Positions 1 to 55,007 of a stretch of DNA of 58,264 nt are shown here, one piece after another. Within the stretch, counting starts at the first letter, position 1, and every line of letters begins with the position of its first letter. Position numbers and translations under genes: made by a program. The notes beneath the pieces are model-generated. The model was given only the letters and a program-made list of their open reading frames with translations. It ran no database searches and was not told the origin of the DNA. Source of the DNA: Candidatus Kaiserbacteria bacterium RIFCSPLOWO2_01_FULL_51_21 (GTDB taxonomy: Bacteria; Patescibacteriota; Minisyncoccia; Phycocordibacterales; 2-01-FULL-51-21); contig MFLV01000009.1 in NCBI GenBank assembly GCA_001781435.1, positions 435 to 58,698 on the forward strand, in the 5' to 3' direction.

Positions 1-70
1 TCCGTTTGGAAAGAACGGCGTCCTTCGGGCGCTGTCAGATACGCTTCAGACAAGCGTCACGGACGCTGAA

Positions 71-3060: not shown

Positions 3061-3489
3061 ATGGGTAAGAAACGAATCGTAAAAAAAGGAGGGGAGTCAG
3101 AAGAGGGACCGGCAAAACAATCGGGGCATCTTTCGCGGCGGGAGCTCGGGGTTGGGACGCTCCACATTCACGCGACCTACAACAATACCAAAGTGCTTTT
3201 GGCGGATACTAGGGGCAATACGGTTGCCTGGTCATCAAGCGGCTCGCTTGGTTTTAAAGGTGCAAAAAAAGGAACACCGTTTGCCGCGGCAAAAGTCGGA
3301 GAGCTTATCGGGGAGCGTGCGACACAGCTCGGCATGAAGGAAGCGAATGCGGTTGTGCGTGGGGTCGGATCCGGTCGCGAATCGGCATTGCGCGCTTTTT
3401 CATCGAAGGGAATTCAAATTACCGGTATCAAAGACACCACCCCAATTCCGTTCAACGGACCGCGCCCTCCTAAACCTAGGAGGGTCTAG
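3061..3489 (+). CDS. rpsK: 30S ribosomal protein S11
   Basis: Contains LHIHATYNNTKVLLAD...GFKGAKKGTPFAA. ATG at 3061 preferred over the track's GTG at 3040. Confidence 0.93.
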   Translation: MGKKRIVKKGGESEEGPAKQSGHLSRRELGVGTLHIHATYNNTKVLLADTRGNTVAWSSSGSLGFKGAKKGTPFAAAKVGELIGERATQLGMKEANAVVRGVGSGRESALRAFSSKGIQITGIKDTTPIPFNGPRPPKPRRV

Positions 3490-3574
3490 AATTACGAAGT
3501 ATGAATTACAAGGTACGAGTCACGCGTTCAGAGTTATTTTATTCGAAATTCTTAATTCGAAATTCTTAATTCGT
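3490..3574. repeat. heptamer-repeat locus with inverted arms
   Basis: AATTACGAAGTATGAATTACAAGGTACGAG (3490-3520) faces five tandem ATTCKWA units (3541-3574). The array abuts the rpsD ATG. Confidence 0.8.
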
Positions 3575-4183
3575 ATGTTGGTTGGTCCAAAATACAAAAT
3601 TTGCAAACGTTTGGGAAATGGGGTTTTTGAAAAATGCCAAACTCAGAAATTTGCACTCTCCGAAGGGCGACGAGGTAAAAAACAAGGCTCGCGCCGCGGC
3701 GCGTCCGATTACGGGCGACAGCTTCTCGAAATGCAGCGGGTTCGCTTTACCTACGGTATGCCGGAGCGACAACTGTACCGGTATGTTAAAGAATCCCGTG
3801 CAGGGAAAACCGGGGATCCGACAGGACCGCTTTTTGCCAACTTAGAGCTTCGGTTGGATAATGCGGTATACCGGCTTGGATTTGCATCGACTCGCCGGCT
3901 TGCCCGTCAGCTTGTCGCCCATGGGCATATTACGGTGAACAGGGAGCGTGCTACCATTCCCTCGAGGATTCTTTCTGTGGGTGATGAAATCGGCGTCCGG
4001 GAAGGAAGTAAGCGGAGCATCTATATGCAGAATCTTTTGGAGGAGCTTCCTAACCGAACCGTGCCATCCTGGCTCACTCGTGATACGAGTGCGCTTACGG
4101 CAAAGATTGTAGCACTCCCAACCCGGGACAGCGCTGAGTCGCTCGCAAATCTTTCTGCGGTCATCGAATTTTATAGCCGTTAA
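3575..4183 (+). CDS. rpsD: 30S ribosomal protein S4
   Basis: MLVGPKYKICKRLG start and the S4 domain LELRLDNAVYRLGFASTRRLARQLVAHGHITVN. The track ORF 3347-4183 is a read-through extension. Confidence 0.94.
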   Translation: MLVGPKYKICKRLGNGVFEKCQTQKFALSEGRRGKKQGSRRGASDYGRQLLEMQRVRFTYGMPERQLYRYVKESRAGKTGDPTGPLFANLELRLDNAVYRLGFASTRRLARQLVAHGHITVNRERATIPSRILSVGDEIGVREGSKRSIYMQNLLEELPNRTVPSWLTRDTSALTAKIVALPTRDSAESLANLSAVIEFYSR

Positions 4184-29993: not shown

Positions 29994-30557
29994 ATGGAAC
30001 TTTCAGCCAAAATAGAGGCACTTCTTTTCTTTCGCGGTGAGCCGGTCGGAAAGCGGGAACTTGCCAAGATGCTCGGGAGCAAGGATGCGGAAATAGAACA
30101 AGGCATAACGGAACTGAAGTCAAAACTTGAAAATCGGGGCATTGCTCTCCTTGAGAAAGACGATGAGGTGGAACTTCGCACCGCGCCGGAAGCAAGCGAG
30201 CTTATAGAAAAAATCCGCAAAGAAGAGCTCTCCCGAGATCTCGGTAAGGCTGGCGCGGAAACACTCGCCATTATTCTCTACCGCAATCCAGTGACTCGCG
30301 CCGATATCGACTACATCCGCGGAGTAAACTCCACTTTTATCTTGCGCAATCTTCTCATTCGCGGGCTCGTTGAGCGGGTGCAGAATCCGAACGACCAGCG
30401 CAGTTTCCACTATAAACCGACCTTCGAGCTTCTCGCGCATCTCGGAATCAAAAATATTTCCGAACTCCCGGAATACACCTCGGTGCAGGAAGAACTCGAA
30501 AAATTTACCGTATCCCAAAAAGCAGAGGAGGAAGACAGTGAAAAAGAACATGCGTGA
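29994..30557 (+). CDS. scpB: segregation and condensation protein B
   Basis: IEALLFFRGEPVGKRELAKML and tandem winged-helix architecture. Confidence 0.9.
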   Translation: MELSAKIEALLFFRGEPVGKRELAKMLGSKDAEIEQGITELKSKLENRGIALLEKDDEVELRTAPEASELIEKIRKEELSRDLGKAGAETLAIILYRNPVTRADIDYIRGVNSTFILRNLLIRGLVERVQNPNDQRSFHYKPTFELLAHLGIKNISELPEYTSVQEELEKFTVSQKAEEEDSEKEHA

Positions 30558-31524
30558 AATCCATCAACAACTCCTGCTTGGTTTTTTTGCAATGCTTAGT
30601 GTCGGAGGCGCGTTTCTTTTTGCTCTCTCCATGCCGCGAGGAGAGACCCCACGGCAAGAAGCCACCGTAATCACCTCACTTCCGACCCCCGCTCCCGACC
30701 TCTTCAAAGACCTCTCGCTTGAGGCTAAGGCGGTTATCGTTATCGACTGGAGCCGTAACCAAGTGCTCTTTGAAAAAAACGCCAACGCGCAATTACCGCT
30801 TGCCTCGCTTTCGAAACTCATGACCGTGGTCGTTGCAGATGAGGTGCTTCCTAAAGGAAGTGCCGTCACTATCCGTCCTAAAGATGCAAAACAAAGCGAT
30901 AATGCGCCACTGCGAGCCGGAGAGCAGTGGCGCCTTAAAGACCTTCTTGATTTCACCCTGATTGGCTCTTCAAACAGCGGCGCTTCTGCACTTGCAAGCG
31001 AGGCTACCGCTGCGCTCCACGGAGAAACGGAAGAAAAGAATATACAACCCTCTTCAGTATTTCTCGAGCGGATGAACCAAAAAGCGGCAGAGCTTGGACT
31101 CTCGCAAACCTATTTCCTCAATGAAACCGGTCTCGATCAAAGCTCGGAGGTTCCCGGTAACAACGGTTCCGCCCGAGATATGGCGAAACTTCTCGGTTAC
31201 ATCATTACTAGCCGACCCGAATTGTTAGACGCGACCAGATATCCGGAATTCAGCGCCGTGACAGTCGGCAACACTCGCTACAGAGTACAGAACACCGATA
31301 CCGCCCTTGGCCACATTCCGGGACTTATCGGATCAAAAACGGGGCTTACTGATCTTGCGGGGGGCAATTTAGCCGTGGCATTTGACGCCGGCATTGAACA
31401 TCCAATCATTGTAGTGATCCTTGGCTCATCGCAGGAAGGGCGATTCGTTGATATTCAAAAGCTCGTGGACACCTCACTTTCCTGTCTTGCTCTAGGCTGT
31501 CGTAATAGTGTCTCAAATTTATGA
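30550..31524 (+). CDS. D-alanyl-D-alanine carboxypeptidase (S11 family)
   Basis: Signal anchor, then SLSK (SxxK), SSNSG (SxN) and KTGLT (KTG). ATG at 30550 overlaps the scpB stop; the track ORF from 30370 is an extension. Confidence 0.88.
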   Translation: MREIHQQLLLGFFAMLSVGGAFLFALSMPRGETPRQEATVITSLPTPAPDLFKDLSLEAKAVIVIDWSRNQVLFEKNANAQLPLASLSKLMTVVVADEVLPKGSAVTIRPKDAKQSDNAPLRAGEQWRLKDLLDFTLIGSSNSGASALASEATAALHGETEEKNIQPSSVFLERMNQKAAELGLSQTYFLNETGLDQSSEVPGNNGSARDMAKLLGYIITSRPELLDATRYPEFSAVTVGNTRYRVQNTDTALGHIPGLIGSKTGLTDLAGGNLAVAFDAGIEHPIIVVILGSSQEGRFVDIQKLVDTSLSCLALGCRNSVSNL

Positions 31525-31721
31525 TCCCGTTAGAGATTAGAAAAGTTGGTTTTAGTTTGAGAGACACTTACTGCATTTTCAAGAACATTCTCACGAACCT
31601 CAACATCATGAACGGAAACGCCTTCAACAGACAGCGCCAGGTCGAAAAGATTATTTTTCATGTTCAGATAAAAAAGTCCAGTAAGCAACGCATGCTGGGC
31701 GTTTCCTATCTCTAACGGGAT
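31521..31721 (+). repeat. CCCGTTAGA-arm palindromic junction element, copy 1 (long variant)
   Basis: Arms ATCCCGTTAGAGAT (31524-31537) / ATCTCTAACGGGAT (31708-31721). It contains track ORF 31521-31715 (64 aa), and ATGAT flanks both ends. Confidence 0.85.
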
Positions 31722-32790
31722 GATTATCGACGTCGTTAAAGTGATTCTTCCCGCAGCGCTTGCTTTTAGTATTGGTATGGCGATTACGCCGGCACTTACT
31801 CACTACCTCTACACGTACAAAGCCTGGAAGAAACAAGTTCGGAGCCGAGCTATTGATGGCAGGGAAGCCATCATCTTTAACGAATTACACAAAGAAAAAG
31901 AAATCGGAACTCCGCGTATGGGCGGAGTGGTTATTTGGCTCTCGGCAGCTTTCACAATCGTCGGAATCTGGCTTTTGGCCGAGCTTTTTCCCGGAAGCAT
32001 TTTCACAAAACTCGATTTTTTAAGTCGCAACCAAACCTGGATACCTTTTTTCACGCTCATTGCTGGTGCACTCGTCGGACTTATCGACGACTTATTCGAG
32101 GTTATGGGACGAGGCGGGTATATCGGCGGGGGACTTTCGCTTACGAAACGCCTTCTTGTCGTTGCTGGGATTGCTCTTTTCGTAGGATGGTGGTTCTACA
32201 GTAAACTTGAAATCACAACCATCGGGATGTTTTTTGGCGCAAGCGTGTCGGTTGGCATTTTTATTATTCCCATTTTTGTACTGGTCACGCTTGCACTCTA
32301 TGCAAGTGGCGTTATCGACGGCATTGACGGTCTTGCCGGGGGAGTATTCTCAACTATTTTTCTCGCTTATGCGGGCATCGCCTTTTATCAGGGACAAATA
32401 GATTTAGCCGCCTTTTGTGCGACGGTTGCCGGCGGCATATTGGCGTTTTTATGGTTCAATATTCCGCCGGCGCGCTTCTACATGTCAGAAACGGGGACCA
32501 TGGGACTCACCATAACGCTTGCGGTCGTCGCTTTTATGACCGACTCACTTGGAGAGGGGCACGGGCTCATTGTTCTCCCGATCGTCGCCTTCCTTCTCCT
32601 CATCACCGTTGCCTCGGTGCTTCTCCAGGTTATATCGAAAAGACTGCGTAAAGGGAAAAAGATATTCCGCATTGCGCCCCTCCACCATCATTTCGAAGCT
32701 ATCGGCTGGCCACCGTATAAAGTAACCATGCGTTTTTGGGTCCTCGGCATCATCTTCGGCCTCGTCGGCATGATTCTTGCCTTCCTTTAG
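31720..32790 (+). CDS. mraY: phospho-N-acetylmuramoyl-pentapeptide transferase
   Basis: 356-aa polytopic protein with GTPRMGGVVIW and the C-terminal APLHHHFE motif. Confidence 0.95.
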   Translation: MIIDVVKVILPAALAFSIGMAITPALTHYLYTYKAWKKQVRSRAIDGREAIIFNELHKEKEIGTPRMGGVVIWLSAAFTIVGIWLLAELFPGSIFTKLDFLSRNQTWIPFFTLIAGALVGLIDDLFEVMGRGGYIGGGLSLTKRLLVVAGIALFVGWWFYSKLEITTIGMFFGASVSVGIFIIPIFVLVTLALYASGVIDGIDGLAGGVFSTIFLAYAGIAFYQGQIDLAAFCATVAGGILAFLWFNIPPARFYMSETGTMGLTITLAVVAFMTDSLGEGHGLIVLPIVAFLLLITVASVLLQVISKRLRKGKKIFRIAPLHHHFEAIGWPPYKVTMRFWVLGIIFGLVGMILAFL

Positions 32791-32801
32791 CAACACGCGG
32801 C

Positions 32802-32923
32802 ATGAATCCCGTTAGAAATCACGGACAGGCTGGTACAATATGTTACTAAAGGTCAAATATATCAACAATAAACAAAAGAGCACGGCGCTTCGGAAAAAGT
32901 CCGTGCCCTATTTCTAACGGGAT
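32802..32923 (+). repeat. CCCGTTAGA-arm palindromic junction element, copy 2
   Basis: Arms ATCCCGTTAGAAAT (32806-32819) / ATTTCTAACGGGAT (32910-32923), extended by CACGGAC/GTCCGTG. Confidence 0.85.
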
Positions 32924-34019
32924 GAAAAGCCACAGCTTCGATCGCTCCATCTTTTTTTTGACGATACTTCTCGTGGTCGTGGGATTTTTTGTTTTCACTT
33001 CAGCTTCACTTGGGCTTCTCTCTCGTGTCGACGGAGCCCACTTCGCGCGCACCGCGTTCACTCAGGCGTTCCTCGGCATCGGACTGGGGTTTGTGGGACT
33101 ACTCACAGCCATAAACATCCGCTACCGCTTTTGGAGAAAATACGCTCTTCTTATTTTTATTGCAGCGCTTATTGCGACAAGTCTGGTCTTCGTACCAGGG
33201 CTCGGCTTCAGCTCCGGCGGCGCAACACGCTGGATTCATATCGGGCCCTTGTCGTGGCAGCCGGCTGAATTCCTGAAGCTTGCATTCGTCATCTACCTTG
33301 CGGCATGGCTTTCCGGGGCCCGCGGCAAAGTACAGCATTTTCGGTCCAGCATTATCCCGTTCCTCCTCATTACCGCTTTTACCGGCACCTTACTCCTCTT
33401 AGAGCCTGACACAGGGACTTTCATGGTCATCGTCACCGCCGGTCTTGCCATGCTTATTGCCGCCGGGGTGCGGTGGCGCGATATTGCGATTCTTGTGTGT
33501 GTGGTGCTTATCGGTCTTGCCGGACTTGCCGCTACGCGACCGTATATAAAAGACCGTATCGTAACGTTTATCGACCCGATGCATGACCCCCAAGGATCAA
33601 GCTACCAGCTTCAGCAATCACTTATTGCCGTCGGCTCAGGAGGGCTCCTCGGAAGGGGATTTGGACTCAGCGTTCAAAAGTTCAGTTATCTTCCGGAACC
33701 ATCGGGCGATTCGATTTTTGCGGTTGCTGCCGAAGAATTTGGATTTCTTGGAAGCATCACGCTCGTCGGCTTGTTCTTACTGCTGGGACTTCAGGGGCTC
33801 AAGGTGGCGGCGCGTGCACCTGATACATTCGGTGGACTCTTGGCCGTCGGGATTGTTATACTCATCGTATCCCAGTCATTTATCAACATCGCCTCCATGG
33901 TAGGGGTACTGCCGCTCACCGGCCTGCCGATGCTTTTTATAAGTCATGGGGGTACCGCAATGCTCTTTGGCCTTTTTGAAATTGGAATTTTGCTTAATAT
34001 TTCGAAATACCGAGCCTAA
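32922..34019 (+). CDS. ftsW: cell division / peptidoglycan polymerase FtsW (SEDS family)
   Basis: 365 aa, ten-TM SEDS pattern, between mraY and murG. Confidence 0.9.
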   Translation: MKSHSFDRSIFFLTILLVVVGFFVFTSASLGLLSRVDGAHFARTAFTQAFLGIGLGFVGLLTAINIRYRFWRKYALLIFIAALIATSLVFVPGLGFSSGGATRWIHIGPLSWQPAEFLKLAFVIYLAAWLSGARGKVQHFRSSIIPFLLITAFTGTLLLLEPDTGTFMVIVTAGLAMLIAAGVRWRDIAILVCVVLIGLAGLAATRPYIKDRIVTFIDPMHDPQGSSYQLQQSLIAVGSGGLLGRGFGLSVQKFSYLPEPSGDSIFAVAAEEFGFLGSITLVGLFLLLGLQGLKVAARAPDTFGGLLAVGIVILIVSQSFINIASMVGVLPLTGLPMLFISHGGTAMLFGLFEIGILLNISKYRA

Positions 34020-34029
34020 ATTGAAATAT

Positions 34030-34056
34030 GAATTACGAAGTACAAATTACGAATAA
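34030..34056. repeat. heptamer-repeat locus (complement orientation)
   Basis: GAATTACGAAGTACAAATTACGAATAA lies between the ftsW stop and element copy 3. Confidence 0.7.
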
Positions 34057-34061
34057 ATAGG

Positions 34062-34184
34062 ATGAATCCCGTTAGAAGTCGAGAACCCGCAACAACTTTC
34101 AATATGGCAATGGTCGAAAATATCCAACGTAGTTCGTGGGTAGGAATAAGCGCCAACAGGTGCGCGTCCTACTTCTAACGGGAT
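34062..34184 (+). repeat. CCCGTTAGA-arm palindromic junction element, copy 3
   Basis: Arms ATCCCGTTAGAAGT (34066-34079) / ACTTCTAACGGGAT (34171-34184). An open 38-codon frame spans 34062-34178. Confidence 0.85.
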
Positions 34185-35316
34185 GAAAATACTTTTTACC
34201 GGAGGAGGCACCGGGGGACATTTTTATCCAATCATCGCCGTTGCCGAGGAGGTGAATGCTCTCGTTGAAGAGCGGAAACTCTTGAGACCTTCGCTCTATT
34301 ACGCCGGGCCGACTCCCTTTGAAGAACGTCTGCTGTTTGAGAACGGCATTGAATTCCGGAAAAGTCCGGCTGGGAAGGTCCGCCGCTATTTTTCGCTTCT
34401 CAATATCACTGATGCGATTAAAACGGCTTTTGGCATTTTGAAGGCGCTTTTTCAAGTTTTCAGCATTTATCCGGACGTCGTTTTCAGCAAAGGCGGGTAC
34501 GCGAGTTTTCCGACGGTGCTCGCCGCGCGGCTATTTAAGATACCGCTTGTGATCCACGAATCAGACGCGACGCCGGGAAAAGTAAACCGTTTCGCAGGGA
34601 AATTTGCTGAACGGATTGCCATTGCGTATCCTGAAGCCGCAAGCTTTTTCCCAAAAGGGAAGACGGCGTTAGTCGGAAATCCTATCCGAAAGGCTCTGCG
34701 GACCGTTGCACGGGAAGGCGCCTACGAATTTTTGCGTCTTTCATCAGAGCTCCCCGTCATTGTGATACTCGGCGGCTCCCAAGGAGCGCAAAAACTCAAC
34801 GACGTGGTGCTCGGCGCCTTACCGGAACTCGTTGAGCGTTATCAAATTATTCACCAGACGGGCGATGCTTTATTTCAAGATGTAGAGAGAACTGCTCGCG
34901 TGGTGCTCGAAAAAAGCCAGAATGGCAGCCGGTACAAAGTATTTCCCTATCTGAATGAACTGGCGCTCCGCATGTCGGCGGGCGTTGCGACCGTCATCGT
35001 TTCCCGTGCAGGATCAGGAGCCATTTTTGAGATTGCACAGTGGGGAATTCCGAGCATTATCGTCCCACTGCCTGAACTTGTCTCACACGACCAAACAAAA
35101 AACGCCTTTACCTACGCGCGTTCTGGAGCTGCGGTCGTTATTGAGCAAGACAATCTCACGGCACACCTTTTGGTATCCGAGATCACCCGCCTCATTGATA
35201 ACCCGAATATCCGAGAAAAAATGAAGGCAGGAGCAGCGTCATTCGCCAAGCCCAAAGCGGCGCGGGAGGTTGCGGAAGCAATCCTTGATATTGCGCTTAA
35301 ACATGAATCCCGTTAG
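34183..35316 (+). CDS. murG: UDP-N-acetylglucosamine--N-acetylmuramyl-(pentapeptide) pyrophosphoryl-undecaprenol N-acetylglucosamine transferase (lipid II synthase)
   Basis: MKILFTGGGTGGHFYPIIAV. The stop TAG (35314-35316) lies inside the left arm of element copy 4. Confidence 0.95.
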   Translation: MKILFTGGGTGGHFYPIIAVAEEVNALVEERKLLRPSLYYAGPTPFEERLLFENGIEFRKSPAGKVRRYFSLLNITDAIKTAFGILKALFQVFSIYPDVVFSKGGYASFPTVLAARLFKIPLVIHESDATPGKVNRFAGKFAERIAIAYPEAASFFPKGKTALVGNPIRKALRTVAREGAYEFLRLSSELPVIVILGGSQGAQKLNDVVLGALPELVERYQIIHQTGDALFQDVERTARVVLEKSQNGSRYKVFPYLNELALRMSAGVATVIVSRAGSGAIFEIAQWGIPSIIVPLPELVSHDQTKNAFTYARSGAAVVIEQDNLTAHLLVSEITRLIDNPNIREKMKAGAASFAKPKAAREVAEAILDIALKHESR

Positions 35317-35425
35317 AGGTCGCGAACCCGCAACCACTGATGCTATGATTAAGGTCGAATATTTTGAAATTAACGTTGTAGTTAAATCGCACTCCACTGG
35401 GTGCGCGTTCTACCTCTAACGGGAT
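35303..35425 (+). repeat. CCCGTTAGA-arm palindromic junction element, copy 4
   Basis: Arms ATCCCGTTAGAGGT (35307-35320) / ACCTCTAACGGGAT (35412-35425). An open 38-codon frame spans 35303-35419. Confidence 0.85.
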
Positions 35426-36821
35426 GAAGCTACTTGAGGAGCTTGAGCAATTGTTTGTGACACCCGCCTTAGCCACAAATAGAAAAGTGGTGGTGCGTAC
35501 TGCGCCTTCACCAACCGGCAATCTCCACATAGGAACCGCGCGCTTAGCGCTTTTCAATTACCTTTTCGCACGCAAACACGGGGGGAAGATCATTTTGCGC
35601 ATTGAGGATACCGATACCACCCGCTCAAAAAAAGAGTTTGAGGACGATATTCTTGAAAGCCTACGCTGGCTCAGTCTCTCTCATGACGAGTTCTACCGCC
35701 AATCTGAACGGGGAAGCGTCTACCAAAAACATCTTCTGCGTCTCATTAAGGAAAAGAAAGCGTATCTTTCGCGCGAACCATCGCAGAGTAATCCGGCGGT
35801 GGAGATTGAGGTCGTCCGGCTACGAAACCAAAACAGGATAATCTCATTTGAGGACGAAATTCGTGGAACCATTTCGTTTGATACGATGGAGCTCGGTGAT
35901 TTTGTAATCGCACGCTCGCTTTCCGACGCCCTGTACCATTTCGCCGTTGTGGTTGATGACGTCGAGATGGGAGTAACCCATGTGATTCGGGGCGATGATC
36001 ATATCTCGAATACGCCGCGGCATATCCTCATACAGGAAGCGCTTGGCGCCCCGCGCCCCGTCTACGCGCACATCCCTCTTGTTCTCGCACCTGACCACTC
36101 AAAATTATCTAAACGCCATGGCGCAACAGCAATTCGGGAATATCGCGAGCAAGGATTTTTGCCCGAGGCGCTTATAAACTATCTCGCTCTGCTCGGCTGG
36201 AACCCCGGCACGACTCAAGAATTATTCACTCTTTCCGAACTCATAAAAGAGTTCGACTTGAGTCAGGTGCATAAAAGCGGAGCAATATTCGACATTGAAA
36301 AACTCCGGTGGTTCAATCGGGAATACCTCCGCCGCCTCCCGCCGGCGGAAGCTCTTGCCCTGATAGGGAACGCCCTGCCGGAGGCTATCAAGGCCTTGCC
36401 TCACTTTTCAGAAGAGCGTCTGCAAAAAGTAGCCCCGCTTCTTATTGAGCGCATTGCGGTTTTTTCCGATATTGCGAAGCTTGTCAAGGAGGAAGAGCTC
36501 CAGTATTTTTTTGAACGTCCCGCCGTTGCTCCGGAAGATCTTGCGTGGAAAGATACAAATGCCGCGACGATCGCCGAGCATTTACAATACCTCTGTGAAA
36601 AACTGGGAGATATCCCTGAGAAAATGTTCACTCAAGATACCGTAAGGGAAGCGATTTTCGGATATGCGACCGAAAAGGGAAGGGGAGCGGTGCTCTGGCC
36701 CATGCGCTATGCCCTCTCAGGGAAAAAACAATCACCCGACCCCTTTGTGCTCTCCGGTATCTTTGGAAAAGAAGAAACCATTGCCCGCCTCACCGCCGCC
36801 TCTGCTACAATAGCGAAATGA
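35424..36821 (+). CDS. gltX: glutamyl-tRNA synthetase
   Basis: PSPTGNLHIGTARLAL (HIGH-type) and KLSKRHG. Confidence 0.95.
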   Translation: MKLLEELEQLFVTPALATNRKVVVRTAPSPTGNLHIGTARLALFNYLFARKHGGKIILRIEDTDTTRSKKEFEDDILESLRWLSLSHDEFYRQSERGSVYQKHLLRLIKEKKAYLSREPSQSNPAVEIEVVRLRNQNRIISFEDEIRGTISFDTMELGDFVIARSLSDALYHFAVVVDDVEMGVTHVIRGDDHISNTPRHILIQEALGAPRPVYAHIPLVLAPDHSKLSKRHGATAIREYREQGFLPEALINYLALLGWNPGTTQELFTLSELIKEFDLSQVHKSGAIFDIEKLRWFNREYLRRLPPAEALALIGNALPEAIKALPHFSEERLQKVAPLLIERIAVFSDIAKLVKEEELQYFFERPAVAPEDLAWKDTNAATIAEHLQYLCEKLGDIPEKMFTQDTVREAIFGYATEKGRGAVLWPMRYALSGKKQSPDPFVLSGIFGKEETIARLTAASATIAK

Positions 36822-44440: not shown

Positions 44441-45706
44441 CTAATTGCTAATAACCGCCCGCTCTCTCCGGTTTCCCGACATCCGCGGCGAGCGGCGCGT
44501 TTGCCGAGTGCGTTCCTTTTGTAACCGTAATTTTACATCAGAGAGCACATTCATAAAAGCAATATACGCATCATAGGGCGATTGATACGGATTAAAGTAC
44601 TTATGCACATCCCCATCGGCAAACCACTTGGTGCACATGTAGTAGAAATGGTCCGATGTCTGGAGATAACGCCAATCTTCAATAAGCTTCGCGTCATCCG
44701 TATGAAGCACCTCCTCCTCAAGAGCATACAGCGCCGCGATTGCGGAGCGCTGAATGTCGTTGCCAACCCACGCAGAAAGGTCCCTCTCCGTATCCGCCCA
44801 CGTCAGGATATAGGGAACATCAATCTCGCCTACCGGCTCATAGGCTGCGGCAGTTTGGGACGGTGTTTTGAAAACGGTATCCGGGTGCTTTAGCAGTTCG
44901 CCGGGAAGCGCAGATAAAAAATGAAAAATGCCACTGTCTTCCCATTGGTGCTCGCCGAAGGTTTCGTAATCCATAAAAAGATTGACGGTCTGCCCGTCGC
45001 CATGGTGCGCATTGACCCACTCGGCAAATTTTGGAGCAGTTAAGGGCCATCCCTTCCAGCTGCGCTCCGAAAAGCGAAACGCAACATCGTCGGAGAGCCG
45101 GTAATTTTTAAGGAGCACCTTTATTTTTTTACAGCCGGGGGGACGATACAGGAAATTCGGACTTCGTGAGGCAAGGGCATGATCCCAACCTTCAGCCATA
45201 ATGCCGATGTAGCCGTGCGCTTCAGCCCACGTCGCCAAGTCGTTCCGATATGAGAGTTCGGTGTTCCGGAGTACCTTGGGTACTACGCCAAACAATCGCC
45301 GTATGGTGCGTTCGTGAAGCTCAATTTGGCGCTCAAATTCAGGAAGCGAGTAGAAAAAAGCAAGCGAATGATAGTGGGTGTCGGCAAGAATTTCAACCCG
45401 ACCGGTCGCAATGAGACGCTTAAATGAATCAAGCACCTCGGGAAAATTTTCTTCAAGCTGGTCGAGCAAAACACCAGAAAAAGAAAAAGAAAACGTGAAC
45501 TCTGGATGCCTCTGTAAGAGATCTTGAAGCGTCTGGTTCGTTGGCAGATACGACTTCCCCGCGACTTTTGCGAGTACCCGCCGATTGTTGAGGTCCGTTT
45601 CCGTGGCGTCGTTAAAATAACCGTGGTCGCGTCCGATATCGAACACCCGGTATCGCTTGATGCGCCTTGGCTGATGAACGTGAAAATAATGGCAAACGGA
45701 AAGCAT
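44441..45706 (-). CDS. glycoside hydrolase family 57 (alpha-amylase / glucanotransferase-like)
   Basis: N-terminal CHYFHVHQPRR, typical of GH57. Confidence 0.85.
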   Translation of the reverse strand: MLSVCHYFHVHQPRRIKRYRVFDIGRDHGYFNDATETDLNNRRVLAKVAGKSYLPTNQTLQDLLQRHPEFTFSFSFSGVLLDQLEENFPEVLDSFKRLIATGRVEILADTHYHSLAFFYSLPEFERQIELHERTIRRLFGVVPKVLRNTELSYRNDLATWAEAHGYIGIMAEGWDHALASRSPNFLYRPPGCKKIKVLLKNYRLSDDVAFRFSERSWKGWPLTAPKFAEWVNAHHGDGQTVNLFMDYETFGEHQWEDSGIFHFLSALPGELLKHPDTVFKTPSQTAAAYEPVGEIDVPYILTWADTERDLSAWVGNDIQRSAIAALYALEEEVLHTDDAKLIEDWRYLQTSDHFYYMCTKWFADGDVHKYFNPYQSPYDAYIAFMNVLSDVKLRLQKERTRQTRRSPRMSGNRRERAVISN

Positions 45707-45816
45707 GAGTACGAATTACGAAGTACGAGTTACGAAGTACGAGTTACGAAGTACGAGAAAATTGAAGAGTGCCAAGTTCATGATTCGTAATTCTTAATTC
45801 GTTATTCGTAATTCGG
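45707..45816. repeat. heptamer-repeat locus with facing arms
   Basis: Seven AKTACGA units (45707-45757), a 25-nt spacer, then ATTCGTAATTCTTAATTCGTTATTCGTAATTCGG (45783-45816). The right arm encodes the last residues of the glycosyltransferase. Confidence 0.85.
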
Positions 45817-47032
45817 CTAAAATCCTATGGTACAGCATAACACATTTTTCCGCGGCTTTTCCCCATGTAAGTTTCTGTGCTTCTTCTTTTCCGCTGCGCG
45901 AGAGTTGTTTTTTAAGCGGCGGATAGCGAAGCACTGAAATAATTTTATTCGCCATTTCTTCAGTATCCCAGAAGTCCACCTTAAGCGCGTGGGTAATGAC
46001 TTCGGATACGCCGGACTGTTTTGAAATAAGCACGGGGGTATCGGCAAGAAGCGACTCAAGAGGGGTAATGCCGAAAGGCTCCGAGACCGAAGGAAGAACA
46101 AATAAATCAGCCGCGCGATACAGCCGCTCTAAATCAGCGCCTCGTACAAACCCGCTGAAGAAAACATTTTCCGCGATGCCGATCTCCGCCGCAAGTCGTA
46201 TCATCTGCCGCTCCATATCACCCGAGCCGGCGATAATGAAAAACGTTTTAGGATTTTCGTCGAGAACGCGTTTTGCCGCCCGCAAAAAGTAATCAGGGCC
46301 TTTTTGAAGCGTGAGCCGCCCGACATAGAGCACAATTTTGTAGCCGGGAATCTTAAGCGGGAGGGGCCCCACTCCGTTTTGATATGAGCCGCCTTCTGCA
46401 GTATGAAAATCAACATCAACGCCGTTATGAACCACATGAACCTTCTTCTCTTCAATATGATATCGCTCGATAATCATCCGTCTTGTGTATTCTGAGACAG
46501 CAACGACTGCATCTGCCTCTTCCATCCCCTCTTTTTCTATTGCGTACACACGGCTGTCGGCATGTTCTCCCCCTCCCTGATCAAATCCAGTGGCATGTAC
46601 ATGCACGATAAGGGGTTTCCGGGAAATGCGCTTTGCTTCAATGCCCGCAGGGAATGAGAGCCAGTCATGGGCATGAATAATGTCAAAGTCCTCTCCCTCA
46701 ATAAGTTTCCGAACAAGAGCCGCGTAACGCAAAACCTCCGAGAACAAATTTTCTCCATATATATCTCCCTCTCCCGAGCGCCACCGCGAATACTCTGCGG
46801 CTGTCCGGTAAGGAGTTAAACCCGTCCGAACTCCTTTGAACGCAACCTGTTCAATACCGGCAAAGAGAAAACGCACTGAAGGCTCCGCAATGTTTATGTG
46901 CTTAGGAAGAACAAAGAGAATGTCAACGTTTTCCTTAGCAAGAGCGCGCGCCAAGCCGCTGCAGGCTACGCCTAAACCACCGCTATTGTAGGGAGGAAAC
47001 TCCCAGCCGAACATGAGTACTCGCAATGACAT
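45794..47032 (-). CDS. glycogen-synthase-like glycosyltransferase (GT4/GT5 type)
   Basis: MSLRVLMFGWEFPPYNSGGLGVAC and EPFGITPLESL. ATG at 47032 preferred over the TTG at 47044. Confidence 0.85.
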   Translation of the reverse strand: MSLRVLMFGWEFPPYNSGGLGVACSGLARALAKENVDILFVLPKHINIAEPSVRFLFAGIEQVAFKGVRTGLTPYRTAAEYSRWRSGEGDIYGENLFSEVLRYAALVRKLIEGEDFDIIHAHDWLSFPAGIEAKRISRKPLIVHVHATGFDQGGGEHADSRVYAIEKEGMEEADAVVAVSEYTRRMIIERYHIEEKKVHVVHNGVDVDFHTAEGGSYQNGVGPLPLKIPGYKIVLYVGRLTLQKGPDYFLRAAKRVLDENPKTFFIIAGSGDMERQMIRLAAEIGIAENVFFSGFVRGADLERLYRAADLFVLPSVSEPFGITPLESLLADTPVLISKQSGVSEVITHALKVDFWDTEEMANKIISVLRYPPLKKQLSRSGKEEAQKLTWGKAAEKCVMLYHRILAELRITN

Positions 47033-47702: not shown

Positions 47703-47715
47703 ACTGATATTTATT

Positions 47716-47748
47716 ATTCGTAATTCTTAATTCGTACTTCGTAATTCG
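47716..47748. repeat. heptamer-repeat locus
   Basis: ATTCGTAATTCTTAATTCGTACTTCGTAATTCG, identical to 49504-49536. Confidence 0.85.
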
Positions 47749-47752
47749 CTTT

Positions 47753-48172
47753 CTATAGTCCCTTGCAATTTGCCGCTGGATGATAGCCGGCGAGCCGCGC
47801 CTCTTCTGTGGTGGCAAACCAAATCTTATTTTCCTCCTTAATCGCTTTTACGCCCGAGCATGACGGCAGGTAGTAAGCGCTGCCATTTCGAGAAGCAACG
47901 AATTGCCCCTCGGCTGTCGACTCGGCCAACTTTTCAATAACTTCTGCCCGCGTGGCAATTCCCTCTTGAGCCGCAGCCGTTTGCGCAGTATTAACAATGG
48001 TAAGAGGTATTTTTGTTTCTTGAACCTTTGAGAGCCGGCCGAGTCCGAAACTGCCGCAACCGACCAAAATAATAACGAGGGCAATCAGGAGATCCCGGGA
48101 TTTGCCAAAAGAAACAAGCTCTGCTATTATTGCAGGCACAATCATTGTTTTCAGTATATCTCGCAACGGCAT
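47753..48172 (-). CDS. membrane-anchored protein with a C-terminal sunset/Ada-like Cys motif
   Basis: A TM helix, then GSAYYLPSCSGVKAIKEENKIWFATTEEARLAGYHPAANC. Confidence 0.6.
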   Translation of the reverse strand: MPLRDILKTMIVPAIIAELVSFGKSRDLLIALVIILVGCGSFGLGRLSKVQETKIPLTIVNTAQTAAAQEGIATRAEVIEKLAESTAEGQFVASRNGSAYYLPSCSGVKAIKEENKIWFATTEEARLAGYHPAANCKGL

Positions 48173-48206
48173 TCAAAAGAAGTTACTTATCCGCAGGTTT
48201 ATCGTT

Positions 48207-48235
48207 ATTCGTACTTCGTAACTCGTACTTCGTAC
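48207..48235. repeat. heptamer-repeat locus
   Basis: ATTCGTACTTCGTAACTCGTACTTCGTAC ends 4 nt before the rpmA ATG. Confidence 0.75.
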
Positions 48236-48239
48236 CCTT

Positions 48240-48512
48240 ATGGCATCAAAAAAAGCGGGCGGAACAGCTAAAAACCTTCGCGACTCTAACCCGAAATACT
48301 TGGGGGTGAAGCTCTCTGCCGGCCAAAGTGCCCGTACCGGGATGGTGATACTGCGCCAGCGCGGTACCCGCGTCCTCCCCGGCCGCAATGTCGGCATCGG
48401 CAAAGACCATACCCTCTTCGCGCTCAAGGACGGTACGGTGACTTTCAGAACCAAGCGCAAGGTTGGCTTCAACAACCAAACCAAGGTTAAAAACGTCGTT
48501 GAGGTACTCTAA
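48240..48512 (+). CDS. rpmA: 50S ribosomal protein L27
   Basis: [24 protein letters not shown]...[14 protein letters not shown]. Confidence 0.95.
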
Positions 48513-49055: not shown

Positions 49056-49497
49056 AAAGAGATTGAATCTGTAATATAAAAACCGCCCGTTGCCCTTCTG
49101 TTGAAACAACAATCTCCCGCTCCCCTATTTCTTTAATTGGCTCCGGCAGCTCAATGACGTCTGCAGGAATTTCAAAATGAGCGCGGGCTTGAATTGCTGC
49201 AGCAATATCTGCGCGGTGAATACCTTTGAACAAATGCCCTTTTTCGTTCGCCTTCGCTTCAATGATAATAGTCGTTCCGTTAAGTGAGGTGATATTTTTC
49301 AGAAGTAGATCTGCTTGAAGCTCTTTCTCTTCAACCGAACGCTCGTACTGCGCCTCTAATGCCTTGACATGCTTGGGCGTCGCCGGAGCTGCAAATCCGC
49401 GCGGAATCAGAAAATTTCTCGCATGCCCCTCGGCAACATTTTTCACTTCGCCTTTCCGTCCTATCCCTGCAATCTCGCGCAGTAATACTATTTGCAT
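49054..49497 (-). CDS. rplI: 50S ribosomal protein L9
   Basis: MQIVLLREIAGIGRKGEVKNVAEGHARNFLIPRGFA. Confidence 0.94.
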   Translation of the reverse strand: MQIVLLREIAGIGRKGEVKNVAEGHARNFLIPRGFAAPATPKHVKALEAQYERSVEEKELQADLLLKNITSLNGTTIIIEAKANEKGHLFKGIHRADIAAAIQARAHFEIPADVIELPEPIKEIGEREIVVSTEGQRAVFILQIQSL

Positions 49498-49503
49498 TTT
49501 CTT

Positions 49504-49568
49504 ATTCGTAATTCTTAATTCGTACTTCGTAATTCGACTCCTAATTCCTGCTTCCTTATTCCTGATTC
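49504..49568. repeat. heptamer-repeat locus with a degenerate tail
   Basis: A 33-nt core identical to 47716-47748, then ACTCCTAATTCCTGCTTCCTTATTCCTGATTC, which runs into the 3' end of the protease gene. Confidence 0.85.
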
Positions 49569-50785
49569 AATAACTTTATCGCCGCATCAAGCTGTGGATC
49601 GCGCCCGGCTTTTACGTCATCTTCAGTGCGTTTGATTTCAATATCAGGGTCAAGTCCGTGTTCGGAAATCGAACGTCCATTCGGGGTAAGCCAGCGCGCG
49701 ATAGTCACCTTGAGCGACGCTTTGTCAGTAATATCCACGAGTTCCTGCACCGAGCCCTTACCGAACGTGCGCGTGCCAATGAGTTTTGCCTTGCCGTGTT
49801 CTTGAAGAGCGCCGGCAAGAATTTCCGAAGCGGATGCCGAGCCGCCATCCATAAGAATCGCCATTTTGAGCTCGTCGGTAAAGACATCGTACCCGCGGCT
49901 GCGATGTAAAATCGGTTTGCCGTTTTTGCCTTGTTCTTCACTCACCACTACTTTGCCGGCGGGCAGAAACCAGCTCGCCATATCAACCGCCGCCTCGAGA
50001 TATCCTCCCGGATTGCCTCGCAGGTCAAGGATGAGCTTGGGGGTGCCGGAGAGCGCAAACTCGCGCAGTGCTCCGCGGAAGAGATTCGCCGAAACTGCGG
50101 AGAAATTATAAAGGGAAATAATAAACACACCGTCCTGTTTCTTTGTCTCAATGGTCGGAATTTCAATAACATCCCGAGTAACGGGTATTACCCTGGGCTC
50201 GTTCTCGTCCGTCCGGAGAATAGTGAAACGCACCACCGTGCCGCGCGGGCCGCGAATGAGCTTCACCGCCTTATCGACAGGCATCGCGTCTGCCGAGACA
50301 TCATCAATTTTAGTGATTTTATCCCCGCTCAGAAGACCAGCGCGGATTGCCGGAGAGCCCTTAAGCGGAGTTATCACTACAAGCGCGTTATCCCGAATGC
50401 CAATCTCCATTCCGACTCCCTCAAAGGAGCCGCTGATATCCGCTTGAAAAATTTCTGATTCTTCCGGCGGGAAAAAAACCGTATAAGGATCCCCGAACGA
50501 GCCGGTAAGTCCGGAGATAAGACCGTATATCTTCTTTTCGTCTGAGAGTTCTTGCGTCGTCGAAGCCGGAACGAATTTTTCATTCAAAACGTTCCAAGTC
50601 CTCCACACTGGCGCAAAGTTGACCCCCGCGGGTTCCGCGTCAAGGGAGGAAGTAAAAATACTGGGAAGAGGTTCTGGCAACACCAGAGAGCCGCTTACAA
50701 CGACCCCTGCAGAAAAACCTCCGGCAAAAAACAGCACGCATACGAGTGCAAAGAGGAAAATAGACCTTCCGGAGACAAAATGCAT
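49556..50785 (-). CDS. carboxy-terminal processing protease (S41 family)
   Basis: Signal anchor, PDZ domain (PLKGSPAIRAGLLSGDKITKIDD) and DLRGNPGGYL. Confidence 0.92.
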   Translation of the reverse strand: MHFVSGRSIFLFALVCVLFFAGGFSAGVVVSGSLVLPEPLPSIFTSSLDAEPAGVNFAPVWRTWNVLNEKFVPASTTQELSDEKKIYGLISGLTGSFGDPYTVFFPPEESEIFQADISGSFEGVGMEIGIRDNALVVITPLKGSPAIRAGLLSGDKITKIDDVSADAMPVDKAVKLIRGPRGTVVRFTILRTDENEPRVIPVTRDVIEIPTIETKKQDGVFIISLYNFSAVSANLFRGALREFALSGTPKLILDLRGNPGGYLEAAVDMASWFLPAGKVVVSEEQGKNGKPILHRSRGYDVFTDELKMAILMDGGSASASEILAGALQEHGKAKLIGTRTFGKGSVQELVDITDKASLKVTIARWLTPNGRSISEHGLDPDIEIKRTEDDVKAGRDPQLDAAIKLLNQE

Positions 50786-50820
50786 CTGTGCATTATCGCA
50801 GATGCTTGAAAGGCGGGCAA

Positions 50821-50975
50821 CCCCGTTAGAAGTAGGTCGTTCAGACTCTGATGAGTCTTCAGACTCGATGAGGCGCGTGCGTTAGAAAATGCCCTATCGA
50901 AATCAAACCCGCACTTGCGAGAATAATTTTAGTATTCCCCAAATGACACTGTGTCGCCCGCGACTTCTAACGGGG
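50821..50975 (-). repeat. CCCGTTAGA-arm palindromic element, copy 5 (diverged, between divergent genes)
   Basis: Arms CCCCGTTAGAAGT (50821-50833) / ACTTCTAACGGGG (50963-50975). The arm-adjacent sequence matches copies 3 and 4 when read on the minus strand. Confidence 0.75.
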
Positions 50976-50982
50976 CAACCCC

Positions 50983-50988
50983 TATAAT
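50983..50988 (+). promoter_or_regulatory. -10 box (TATAAT) 6 nt upstream of the corA-like ATG
   Basis: A perfect TATAAT. No clear -35; that region is occupied by the right arm of element copy 5. Confidence 0.45.
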
Positions 50989-50994
50989 GAAAGT

Positions 50995-51909
50995 ATGGTG
51001 AATCGATACGAGCATAACGGTTTGGTTTGGGTTGACCTTGAGACACCAACCGAAACAGAGGTTCGTCAGATAATGGAAGAATTTACGATTGACCCCTTAG
51101 TGGCGGAGGAGCTTCTCATACCCTCGGTAAAACCAAAAGTGGAATCTTACCGAAATTATATTTACCTCATTCTTCACTTTCCCGCGTTCAAACATACGCA
51201 CACCGACAATCGGGAGCAGGAAATTGATTTCATCGTCGGAAAACGTTTCCTCATTACCGCTCGCTACGACACCATCGATCCGCTCCATAAGTTTGCCAAG
51301 GTTTTCGAAGTACACTCGATTCTTGAAAAAAAAGACCAGGTGAAACACGGGGGATTTCTTCTCTACCACATGATCCGGAAACTGTATAAAGCAGTGGAGC
51401 ATGAACTCGATTTCATACGCGATGAGCTTGTCGATGTTGAGCAGAAAATTTTTGAAGGCCGCGAAAGAGAAATGGTCGTGAAGCTCTCGGAACTCTCCCG
51501 CGCGCTCCTTTGCTTCAAGCAGTCCCTTTCCATGCACCGCGCAACCCTCGAATCGTTTGACCACGCCGCCGGCCGTTTCTTCGGCACCACGTTCTCCTAT
51601 CATATGAGAAGCGTCGTCGGGCTCTACCAGCGAGTTCAGGAAGATATCATAGGAAACTTGGATACGCTAAGTGAGCTTCGGGAGACCAACAACTCCCTGC
51701 TCTCCATAAAACAGAACGAGATCATGAAGACGCTTACCCTCATGGCATTCACCACTTTTCCACTCGTTCTCATTGCCGCAATTTTCAGCATGGATACGAA
51801 AAACACTCCGTTCATCGGGAACCCCTTTGATTTTTGGATTGTTCTCGGTATCATGCTCTGTGCCACAGGGGTATTTTTCTCTTTCTTCAGACACCGCGGC
51901 TGGCTGTAG
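50995..51909 (+). CDS. corA: CorA-family cation transporter with SMD in place of the GMN motif
   Basis: 304 aa with the CorA cytoplasmic domain pattern and two C-terminal TM helices. The loop reads IFSMDTKNTPF where YGMNF is expected. Confidence 0.75.
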   Translation: MVNRYEHNGLVWVDLETPTETEVRQIMEEFTIDPLVAEELLIPSVKPKVESYRNYIYLILHFPAFKHTHTDNREQEIDFIVGKRFLITARYDTIDPLHKFAKVFEVHSILEKKDQVKHGGFLLYHMIRKLYKAVEHELDFIRDELVDVEQKIFEGREREMVVKLSELSRALLCFKQSLSMHRATLESFDHAAGRFFGTTFSYHMRSVVGLYQRVQEDIIGNLDTLSELRETNNSLLSIKQNEIMKTLTLMAFTTFPLVLIAAIFSMDTKNTPFIGNPFDFWIVLGIMLCATGVFFSFFRHRGWL

Positions 51910-51912
51910 GCA

Positions 51913-51942
51913 CGAATTACGAATTAAGAAGTACGAATTACG
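51913..51942. repeat. heptamer-repeat locus (complement orientation)
   Basis: CGAATTACGAATTAAGAAGTACGAATTACG ends 3 nt before the cysS GTG. Confidence 0.8.
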
Positions 51943-54958: not shown

Positions 54959-54966
54959 TTTGCCCC

Positions 54967-54998
54967 ATTCTTAATTCGTAATTCGTACTTCTTAATTC
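54967..54998. repeat. heptamer-repeat locus
   Basis: ATTCTTAATTCGTAATTCGTACTTCTTAATTC. It shares a 22-nt string with the reverse complement of 51913-51942. Confidence 0.8.
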
Positions 54999-55007
54999 TG
55001 ATTATTG

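Follow-up and report, generated by a model that had tools for sequence, protein, structure and literature searches.

Hairpin-forming mobile elements at the start codons of murG and gltX in a Kaiserbacteria genome, and a possible ribosome relay through their short frames

Two 38-codon frames at the starts of murG and gltX

The 58,264 nucleotides (nt) of DNA analysed here (the window) are part of the genome of Candidatus Kaiserbacteria bacterium RIFCSPLOWO2_01_FULL_51_21 (contig MFLV01000009.1, positions 435 to 58,698; the source genome, G000, comprises 629 kb in 28 contigs) and contain five copies of a palindromic element, two of which, copies 3 and 4, carry frames of 38 codons that end just before murG and gltX. 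The original prediction regarded these frames as a possible coupling relay, in which ribosomes would restart at an ATG of the element, melt its stem, stop at its TAA and re-initiate 4 nt downstream. Copies 3 and 4 are, by their architecture, internally deleted, non-autonomous members of a hairpin-forming mobile family, and the relay is partly supported by comparative statistics on this family, which suggest that ribosomes read through the element to the rebuilt start codon. The features of the region are:

30370-31524: D-Ala-D-Ala carboxypeptidase-like gene
31526..31719, + strand: element copy 1, of a long 194-nt subfamily, before mraY; a 64-codon frame (31521-31715) runs from the left ATG to the repeat's TAA
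31720-32790: mraY-like gene, glycosyltransferase family 4
32808..32921, + strand: element copy 2, before ftsW; the left ATG (32802), in frame with ftsW, opens a frame that a stop closes after 15 codons
32922-34019: ftsW
34062..34178, + strand: 38-codon frame of copy 3, starting on murG's original start codon (34062-64) and ending with TAA (34176-78) inside the right terminal repeat; no Pfam family
34067..34183, + strand: element copy 3, T-CCCGTTAGA...TCTAACGGG-A; direct repeat TGAA at 34063-66 and at 34184-87; murG's rebuilt ATG begins with the element's last base, A (34183)
34183..35316, + strand: murG, with N- and C-terminal domains of glycosyltransferase family 28; the left end of copy 4 supplies the last three codons and the stop
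35303..35419, + strand: 38-codon frame of copy 4, starting on gltX's original start codon; TAA (35417-19) in the right terminal repeat
35308..35424, + strand: element copy 4; direct repeat TGAA at 35304-07 and 35425-28; the left arm gives murG's stop TAG (35314-16), and the last base, A (35424), begins gltX's rebuilt ATG
35424..36821, + strand: gltX, class I Glu/Gln tRNA synthetase

An element is thus found at each of four consecutive junctions of cell-wall and division genes. The two frames, 34062-34178 and 35303-35419, are open over 38 codons each and yield peptides identical to those first quoted; both contain GGTCGAA and share the ending TAA-CGGG-ATG, as claimed, the next ATG beginning MurG (34183-35316) or GltX (35424-36821). 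The position of murG's TAG (35314-35316, within the left arm of copy 4 and 11 nt after 35303) and the 64 open codons of copy 1 (31521-31715) were likewise reproduced, as were the two acknowledged exceptions, copy 2, which stops after 15 codons, and copy 5, which has no flanking start codon.

A third copy in the source genome (G000:C10:34508, 115 nt) also has a frame of 38 codons, the equal length of the frames being due to the shared ancestry of the copies. Copies 3 and 4 differ at 40 of 117 positions, and the three copies differ pairwise at 27-40 of 117; when 27-40 random substitutions are simulated in the interior, the frame remains open with p = 0.34-0.44. The substitutions are spread evenly over the three codon positions (16/13/11, 13/9/10 and 11/11/5 for the three pairs), and the codons that differ between pairs are mostly non-synonymous (17-20, against 3-4 synonymous). 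There is no sign of selection on the encoded sequences, and no Pfam family is matched by the peptides of the 38-codon frames.

Insertion on start codons

The termini CCCGTTAGA...TCTAACGGG are common to all five copies in the window. In copies 3 and 4 they bound a non-autonomous palindrome of about 117 nt that sits on the start codons of murG and gltX, respectively, inserted directly behind the A of each, and whose RNA is predicted to fold with -45.8 kcal/mol (z -5.0) in copy 3 and -45.7 kcal/mol (z -5.8) in copy 4. The covariance models of Rfam 15 find only a tRNA at gathering score in the window, and no match at E up to 1 between 31450 and 35480.

A genome of the same genus (G001), whose MurG is 70% identical, has a single ATGAA and no insert at all four corresponding junctions, which read ...ATGATTGTT (mraY), ...ATGAATTCC (ftsW, with one ATGAAT), ...ATGAAAATT (murG) and ...AAACATGAAAACGCTTGA (the murG/gltX overlap). 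The copies at these junctions in the window are therefore insertions at start codons. In the relative, murG overlaps gltX by 14 nt, its stop TGA lying at +12..14 of gltX's ATG (L002 2618-2634); after insertion (35300-35316), the left repeat of copy 4 provides a TAG that is equally far from the left ATG, and the length of murG is unchanged, its C-terminus reading KHESR in the source genome and KHENA in the relative.

The exact termini occur 22 and 28 times in the source genome, against about 2.4 expected for each. Curation yields 26 copies of 50-194 nt, 18 of them with a right end that adjoins the ATG or GTG of a frame 80 codons or longer. Of 401 genomes sampled from the order, 128 contain the 12-mer TCTAACGGGATG; the related genome has no copy of it, and the 9-mer occurs there once, against three times in the reversed control. 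Terminal variants of the element also exist, namely CACGTTAGA and a CCCGTGAGA family.

Among metagenome contigs from four DNA runs compared with 31400-36000, none bridges an empty site. In groundwater and soil metagenome contigs, depth jumps many-fold exactly at the element arms (231.8 at 32786-32939 vs about 3-5 alongside); these depth peaks, like the "joints" at the arms, stem from other members of the family, whose interiors differ. The element family is abundant and diverse in groundwater and soil communities. The 16 sequencing runs listed for this DNA include no RNA run.

Anatomy of the family

Species-representative genomes, scanned for exact termini separated by 85-115 nt, gave at least 130 elements in at least 127 loci. 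Among the matches listed, the host labels comprise many groups of Patescibacteria and also Omnitrophota, Planctomycetota, Deltaproteobacteria and others (labels of metagenome-assembled genomes only), and 75 of 130 elements adjoin a start codon whose frame has 80 codons or more; with the 18 from the source genome, these form a set of 93 start-codon copies.

The orientation of copies was set by the asymmetry of their arms. In 63 orientable copies among the matches listed, CCCG is preceded on its left by T (45) or C (16) and CGGG is followed on its right by A (45) or G (16), and across the start-codon set the left and right flanking bases are complementary in 90 of 93 copies. Outside of these bases, a 4-bp repeat is identical in 67/93 copies and a five-base repeat in only 54/93, the duplicated targets including TGAA, TGGA, TGAG, TTGA and TTTA. 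The simplest reading is that of an element Y-CCCGTTAGA...TCTAACGGG-R (that is, Y-CCCG...CGGG-R) with a target duplication of about 4 bp; copies 1 and 5 are among the few that fit a 5-nt repeat better, leaving the boundary uncertain by one base. By this architecture, the host's original ATG stays at the left, and the element's last base (A or G) together with the duplicated TG rebuilds the gene's ATG or GTG at the right. The ATG that had been attributed to the element is instead the host gene's own start codon, its left copy kept by the target duplication, and the TAA and CGGG spacer are simply terminal repeat, the TAA being located in the right one, TCTAACGGG.

The arms pair extensively. Perfect terminal pairing has a median of 12 nt over 253 distinct copies and reaches 14 bp in copies 3 and 4; arm positions 10-12 take 18 different triplets, which are complementary in 218/253. 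The arm with an extra YARR is the gene-proximal one in 41 copies and the gene-distal one in 3 (among the matches listed), and the sense-strand RNA is the more stable one in 57/93 (-37.9 vs -36.1 kcal/mol, a modest effect of 1.8 kcal/mol on average).

Back-to-back pairs of elements at two further loci, L136 (G129:C13:12466-12781) and L032, have one ATGGT or ATGAAT junction in common; a new copy can therefore land on a start codon rebuilt by an earlier one.

A full-length form encoding a GIY-YIG nuclease

The full-length form of the element is 275-279 nt long, and its sole coding content is a predicted GIY-YIG nuclease of about 95 residues (aa). It was sought with the Pfam family PF01541 in five element-rich genomes of the order, where, after setting aside 5 of 22 matches that lie in frames of 423-495 aa, four of the 17 remaining small GIY-YIG matches are bounded by element termini: two intact parents (L142, 278 nt, and L147, 275 nt), one broken copy (L145) and one with variant termini (L153). 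In both intact parents, ATGAAT|CCCGTTAGA... gives a protein of 94-95 aa that begins MNPVRD... and ends ...LSLTG; its start is the ATG of the host gene, and its TGA overlaps the rebuilt ATGA of that same gene. The parent nuclease matches PF01541 at E 6.2e-18 (65.3 bits, cut-off 22.6) over profile positions 1-71 of 78, and among solved structures its best relative is 1zg2, a UPF0213 protein (E 3.5e-5). A search of a large protein collection found, at E up to 1e-5, 3617 relatives; among their best 120 clusters, 95 are exactly 95 aa long, 94 begin M-x-P-[VL]-R and 112 finish L-[ST]-G, both ends of the nuclease being encoded by the terminal repeats.

Remnants of this coding sequence can be recognized in the window. 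Copy 1 retains ACGGAAACGC..TTCAA, matching part of the nuclease-coding region of the full-length form, and GGTCGAA, as seen in copies 1-4, is similar to the ARSRE-coding CGGTCGAGAGAA of the parent. As a general conserved core of the family, GGTCGAA must be rejected: GGTCGA is found in only 11/93 start-codon copies (2/93 on the other strand), and the peptides are unrelated in other copies. Copies 3 and 4 end at the repeat's TAA and not at an ATGA because the right half of the element is read one base off the nuclease frame. With terminal inverted repeats, a duplication that varies with the site, an empty site in a relative and a longer coding form with the same termini, the family has the structure of MITEs, miniature transposable elements with inverted repeats.

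No full-length form with element termini is found in the source genome, whose sole small GIY-YIG gene lacks them. This stand-alone gene of 80 aa (C2:5614-5832, minus strand) shares 40% identity with the element-borne nuclease over 65 residues; in the element-free relative there is only one GIY-YIG match, in a frame of 448 aa. By this comparison of one genome with one, the stand-alone gene is a candidate for a trans-acting mobiliser. A pattern search for forms of 288-318 nt across the 401 genomes has matches in two of them; of two candidate long forms, L136 is the pair of elements in tandem described above, and L138 is a 288-nt copy that lacks an intact frame. A parent of the IS1380 or piggyBac-like type, suspected from the CCC termini and the duplication of 4-5 bp, was rejected, since none of six loci read has element termini; the transposase model NF033539 has matches in 12 of the 401 genomes, one of them above cut-off.

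The host-ATG frame is more often open when out of frame with the gene

In 74 of the 93 start-codon copies, a start codon lies 6 nt before CCCG. These were classed by the distance between the left and right starts, modulo 3, into copies whose host-ATG frame runs to the TAA, copies in which it runs to an ATGA overlap, and copies in which it is in frame with the gene; a copy was scored if the interior was free of stops, with the two other forward frames as controls. A second sample was drawn from metagenomes with the same pattern followed by ATG: 129 matches, less 2 duplicates and 24 with a short downstream frame or flank, leave 103, of which 27 are without a start codon at -6 and 76 were analysed. 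The stop-free counts are:

TAA class: first sample 20/35 in the host-ATG frame, 4/35 and 3/35 in the other forward frames; metagenome sample 23/39 in the host-ATG frame
ATGA-overlap class: first sample 9/23 in the host-ATG frame, 4/23 and 1/23 in the other forward frames; metagenome sample 11/22 in the host-ATG frame
In-frame-with-gene class: first sample 0/16 in the host-ATG frame, 2/16 and 4/16 in the other forward frames; metagenome sample 1/15 in the host-ATG frame

In the first sample, the excess of out-of-frame copies with a stop-free host-ATG frame is significant by Fisher's test against the control frames (29/58 vs 12/116, p = 2e-8), against non-start sites (29/58 vs 2/17, p = 0.005) and against the in-frame copies (29/58 vs 0/16, p = 1e-4); in the metagenome sample, comparison of the out-of-frame host-ATG frame with the control frames (12/122) gives p = 5e-11. 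The three reverse frames are stop-free in 8-12 of the 74 copies of the first sample, and oriented copies away from start codons are stop-free in 2/12, 0/5 and 0/9 for the three classes. With both samples pooled, the host-ATG frame is stop-free in 63/119 out-of-frame copies, the control frames in 24/238, and the in-frame copies in 1/31. The openness of the host-ATG frame is thus about five times that of the control frames in two independent samples, and only when it is out of frame with the gene.

The copies are diverse, with a median interior identity of 0.48, and weighting by 57 clusters leaves the pattern intact (clusters were formed at 65-80% identity; single-linkage at 60% joins all copies). 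The peptides from open frames are unrelated to one another in both samples. At the level of the family, the openness of the host-ATG frame is far beyond chance. Nor is it simply inherited, because both intact parents carry a TGA in the TAA-ending frame, 15-18 nt before the TAA.

A relay through the hairpin, and its alternatives

In the predicted hairpin of copies 3 and 4, the closing stem, AUCCCGUUAGA.../...UCUAACGGGAU, is 14 bp long and includes the A and U of the rebuilt AUG as paired bases. Shine-Dalgarno motifs are not enriched in the source genome: of the 388 long frames examined, 50 (12.9%) have GGAG, GAGG or AGGA upstream of the first ATG, the background being 12.1%. Boxes resembling a -10 element lie 5-8 nt before the ATG of several genes, including element-bearing ones, where they stand just before the left ATG. 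The source organism may rely largely on leaderless or coupled translation. A/T-rich, -10-like sequence is also seen close to many other starts of this genome.

The best explanation, and on balance a probable one, is that of a mobile hairpin at start codons, consisting of deletion derivatives of a GIY-YIG parent and acting as a ribosome relay. Ribosomes would initiate at the host's original ATG, translate into the element, thereby melting the hairpin that buries the rebuilt AUG, terminate either 4 nt upstream, at the repeat's TAA, or at the ATGA overlap, and re-initiate on the host gene at its rebuilt ATG; the spacing of stop and start would suit this, with TAA-CGGG-ATG in copies 1, 3 and 4 and an ATGA overlap in the full-length forms. 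The parent would express its nuclease by the same route from host ATG to ATGA, and those deletion derivatives would be preferentially retained that keep the route and avoid fusion to the host protein. The 38-residue peptides would have no function, selection acting on the open frame and against in-frame fusions. Of the relay as first proposed, the architecture and the excess of open out-of-frame host-ATG frames in two samples thus speak for it, while the ATG is not the element's own and about half of the copies stop early.

Several observations weigh against this explanation. The openness of the two window frames, taken alone, is within chance. The right half of the TAA frame is open in 17/39 copies of the other classes, against 26/35 in its own class (p = 0.01), and the signal is possibly in part compositional because of this higher baseline. 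An early stop occurs in 56/119 out-of-frame and 30/31 in-frame copies, and yet such copies precede genes, ftsW among them (copy 2); a stop close to the rebuilt ATG, and with it the full relay, is thus not obligatory, and a weaker route to the rebuilt ATG must exist. The count of Shine-Dalgarno-like motifs, finally, rests on crude start calls.

More tentatively, these elements could represent a distinct autonomous type of about 275 bp, encoding only a GIY-YIG nuclease of about 95 aa, which would insert at start codons, borrow the host's translation start and hand the ribosome back at ATGA or TAA-4-nt-ATG, its derivatives being kept readable and unfused by selection in genomes that seem to be without Shine-Dalgarno-driven initiation, and the 38-codon frames being working relays. 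To our knowledge, about 275 bp would make it the smallest autonomous mobile element.

Among the alternatives, it is possible, if rather unlikely, that the frames are pure by-products of the element's anatomy, namely of the duplicated ATG, the repeat-borne TAA and deletion within a coding parent, that their translation is of no consequence, and that the rebuilt ATG is used independently, for example upon breathing of the hairpin. Target duplication and terminal repeat do fully account for the ATG and the TAA, the two frames in the window show nothing that chance would not, the peptides lack conservation, and the early stops in about half of the family are as a by-product would have them. However, such an origin leaves unexplained the contrast between 63/119 open out-of-frame copies and 24/238 control frames, recurring in two samples together with the 1/31 among in-frame copies, as well as the low openness (2/17) of oriented copies away from start codons; it also has to accommodate a rebuilt AUG that is paired in a predicted hairpin of about -46 kcal/mol, in a genome with no Shine-Dalgarno signal.

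It is improbable that the hairpin acts through processing of the RNA, for example by RNase III, so as to separate the cistrons and leave a 5' end beside the rebuilt AUG for leaderless-like translation, the frames being irrelevant. The perfect pairing of the long stem (14 bp in copies 3 and 4, a median of 12 terminal pairs in 253 copies), the slightly greater stability of the RNA in sense orientation (57/93; -37.9 vs -36.1 kcal/mol) and the -10-like boxes 5-8 nt before the ATG of several genes in the source genome, which suggest that leaderless translation is common there, would all agree with it, but a cut within the stem would leave a leader of several nucleotides, and neither the frame-specific deficit of stops nor the avoidance of in-frame fusions is predicted. 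That the 38-codon frames encode a functional small protein is hardly credible and is contradicted at the sequence level, since the similar ends (MNPVR..., ...ASY[FL]) which, with a common KVE segment, unite the three 38-codon copies of the source genome are encoded by inverted repeats, other copies' open frames encode unrelated peptides, and both the lack of a Pfam family and the substitution pattern (even over codon positions, with 17-20 non-synonymous against 3-4 synonymous codons per pair) led to its rejection.

If the relay through the mobile hairpin is true, it shows how a selfish element in a genome of 0.6 Mb can occupy the start codons of essential genes and yet not silence those genes, and it offers a natural system in which to study re-initiation and the melting of hairpins in bacteria that apparently do not use Shine-Dalgarno sequences. 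If confirmed, a repeat-bounded gene for a GIY-YIG nuclease of about 95 aa, together with a target duplication, would be a candidate for an unusual transposition machinery. For annotation, frames of 30-64 codons and "MNPVR..." N-termini at such sites should not be called new small proteins, and care is needed with gene starts beside these elements.

Copy 5 and other repeats

The fifth copy in the window differs in its surroundings from the four at the cell-wall and division genes:

50822..50974, - strand: element copy 5; direct repeat GCAAC; adjoins a -35-like TTGCCC (50820-50815); no flanking start codon

The promoter-like site on this side (50792-50820, minus strand) consists of TTGCCC, a 17-nt spacer and an extended -10 box GATAAT, and ends 6 nt before the ATG of a 409-aa gene (49556-50785); on the other side (50983-50997, plus strand), the ATG at 50995 is preceded by TATAAT at a distance of 6 nt. 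The two genes flanking copy 5 both look leaderless. Copy 5 is joined by several other copies of the source genome in adjoining hexamers similar to TTGAC or TTGCC rather than start codons.

Units of 7 nt (GAATTAC or GAAGTAC and their complements) form intergenic runs on both strands of the window at 3489-3594, 34023-34058, 45699-45822, 47710-47755, 48201-48246, 49484-49543, 51907-51942 and 54961-55006. One of these runs (34023-34058) lies directly upstream of copy 3 and of murG's original ATG. The runs may be promoter-associated repeats.

A second, shorter palindromic family with termini CCCGTGAGAT...ATCTCACGGG, often with GTATAC-like flanks, occurs elsewhere in the source genome and has no copy in the window. 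Its copies are:

C4:738-796
C8:10681-10721
C10:3714-3772
C11:8201-8299
C26:3872-3964

Comparison with known systems

The literature searched does not describe GIY-YIG elements that are bounded by repeats and insert at start codons. Hairpin-forming MITEs that are co-transcribed with genes are known from bacteria as the Correia elements of Neisseria, the ERIC sequences of enterobacteria and the RUP and BOX elements of pneumococci. The family described here resembles them in being short and non-autonomous, in its terminal inverted repeats, target duplication and many copies, and in its location at transcribed intergenic sites, where it would form a stable hairpin. It differs in that it inserts exactly on start codons or -35-like hexamers and rebuilds the signal, in its strong bias of orientation relative to the gene (41 to 3 among the matches listed), and in its parent, which encodes a GIY-YIG nuclease of about 95 aa instead of a DDE transposase; furthermore, the frame from the host ATG tends to be open.

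In the Ssn system, GIY-YIG genes are flanked by a dispersed repeat, NTS/SRM, in a layout that the authors themselves compare to that of an insertion sequence (Chenal et al. 2025, PMC11893778). As far as the consulted part of that account goes, the likeness lies in a small stand-alone GIY-YIG gene between repeats that also occur as many solo copies; the same part describes neither a target duplication, nor insertion at start codons, nor use of a host ATG. The NTS/SRM consensus has no match in the window at up to 3 mismatches.

Free-standing genes for GIY-YIG homing endonucleases are represented by the seg and mob types of phage T4. In homing, the element is copied into one cognate site, and there is no target duplication. 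The elements of the present family, by contrast, occupy dozens of different sites per genome and have a 4-bp duplication, inverted-repeat termini and deletion derivatives. Insertions that encode GIY-YIG proteins, are not introns and do not look as if spread by homing have been described in rRNA genes of the candidate phyla radiation (CPR), in the part of the source consulted (PMC11270868). The present family shares with the homing genes and with these rRNA insertions its nature as a selfish element that carries just one gene, for a GIY-YIG nuclease.

Translational coupling proceeds by termination and subsequent re-initiation at ATGA or at closely spaced stop and start codons. Here too a stop lies 4 nt before the next start or overlaps it, and the start would be masked by the predicted hairpin, which an upstream ribosome would melt; the upstream frame, however, is not a gene but a mobile insertion that would be read from the host gene's former start codon.

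The palindromic elements of Rickettsia, lastly, are translated as in-frame inserts of host proteins. Like them, the elements described here are palindromic and mobile, and would be tolerated in or near the essential genes of a reduced genome through preservation of a frame; they differ in that in-frame read-through into the host protein is avoided (1/31).

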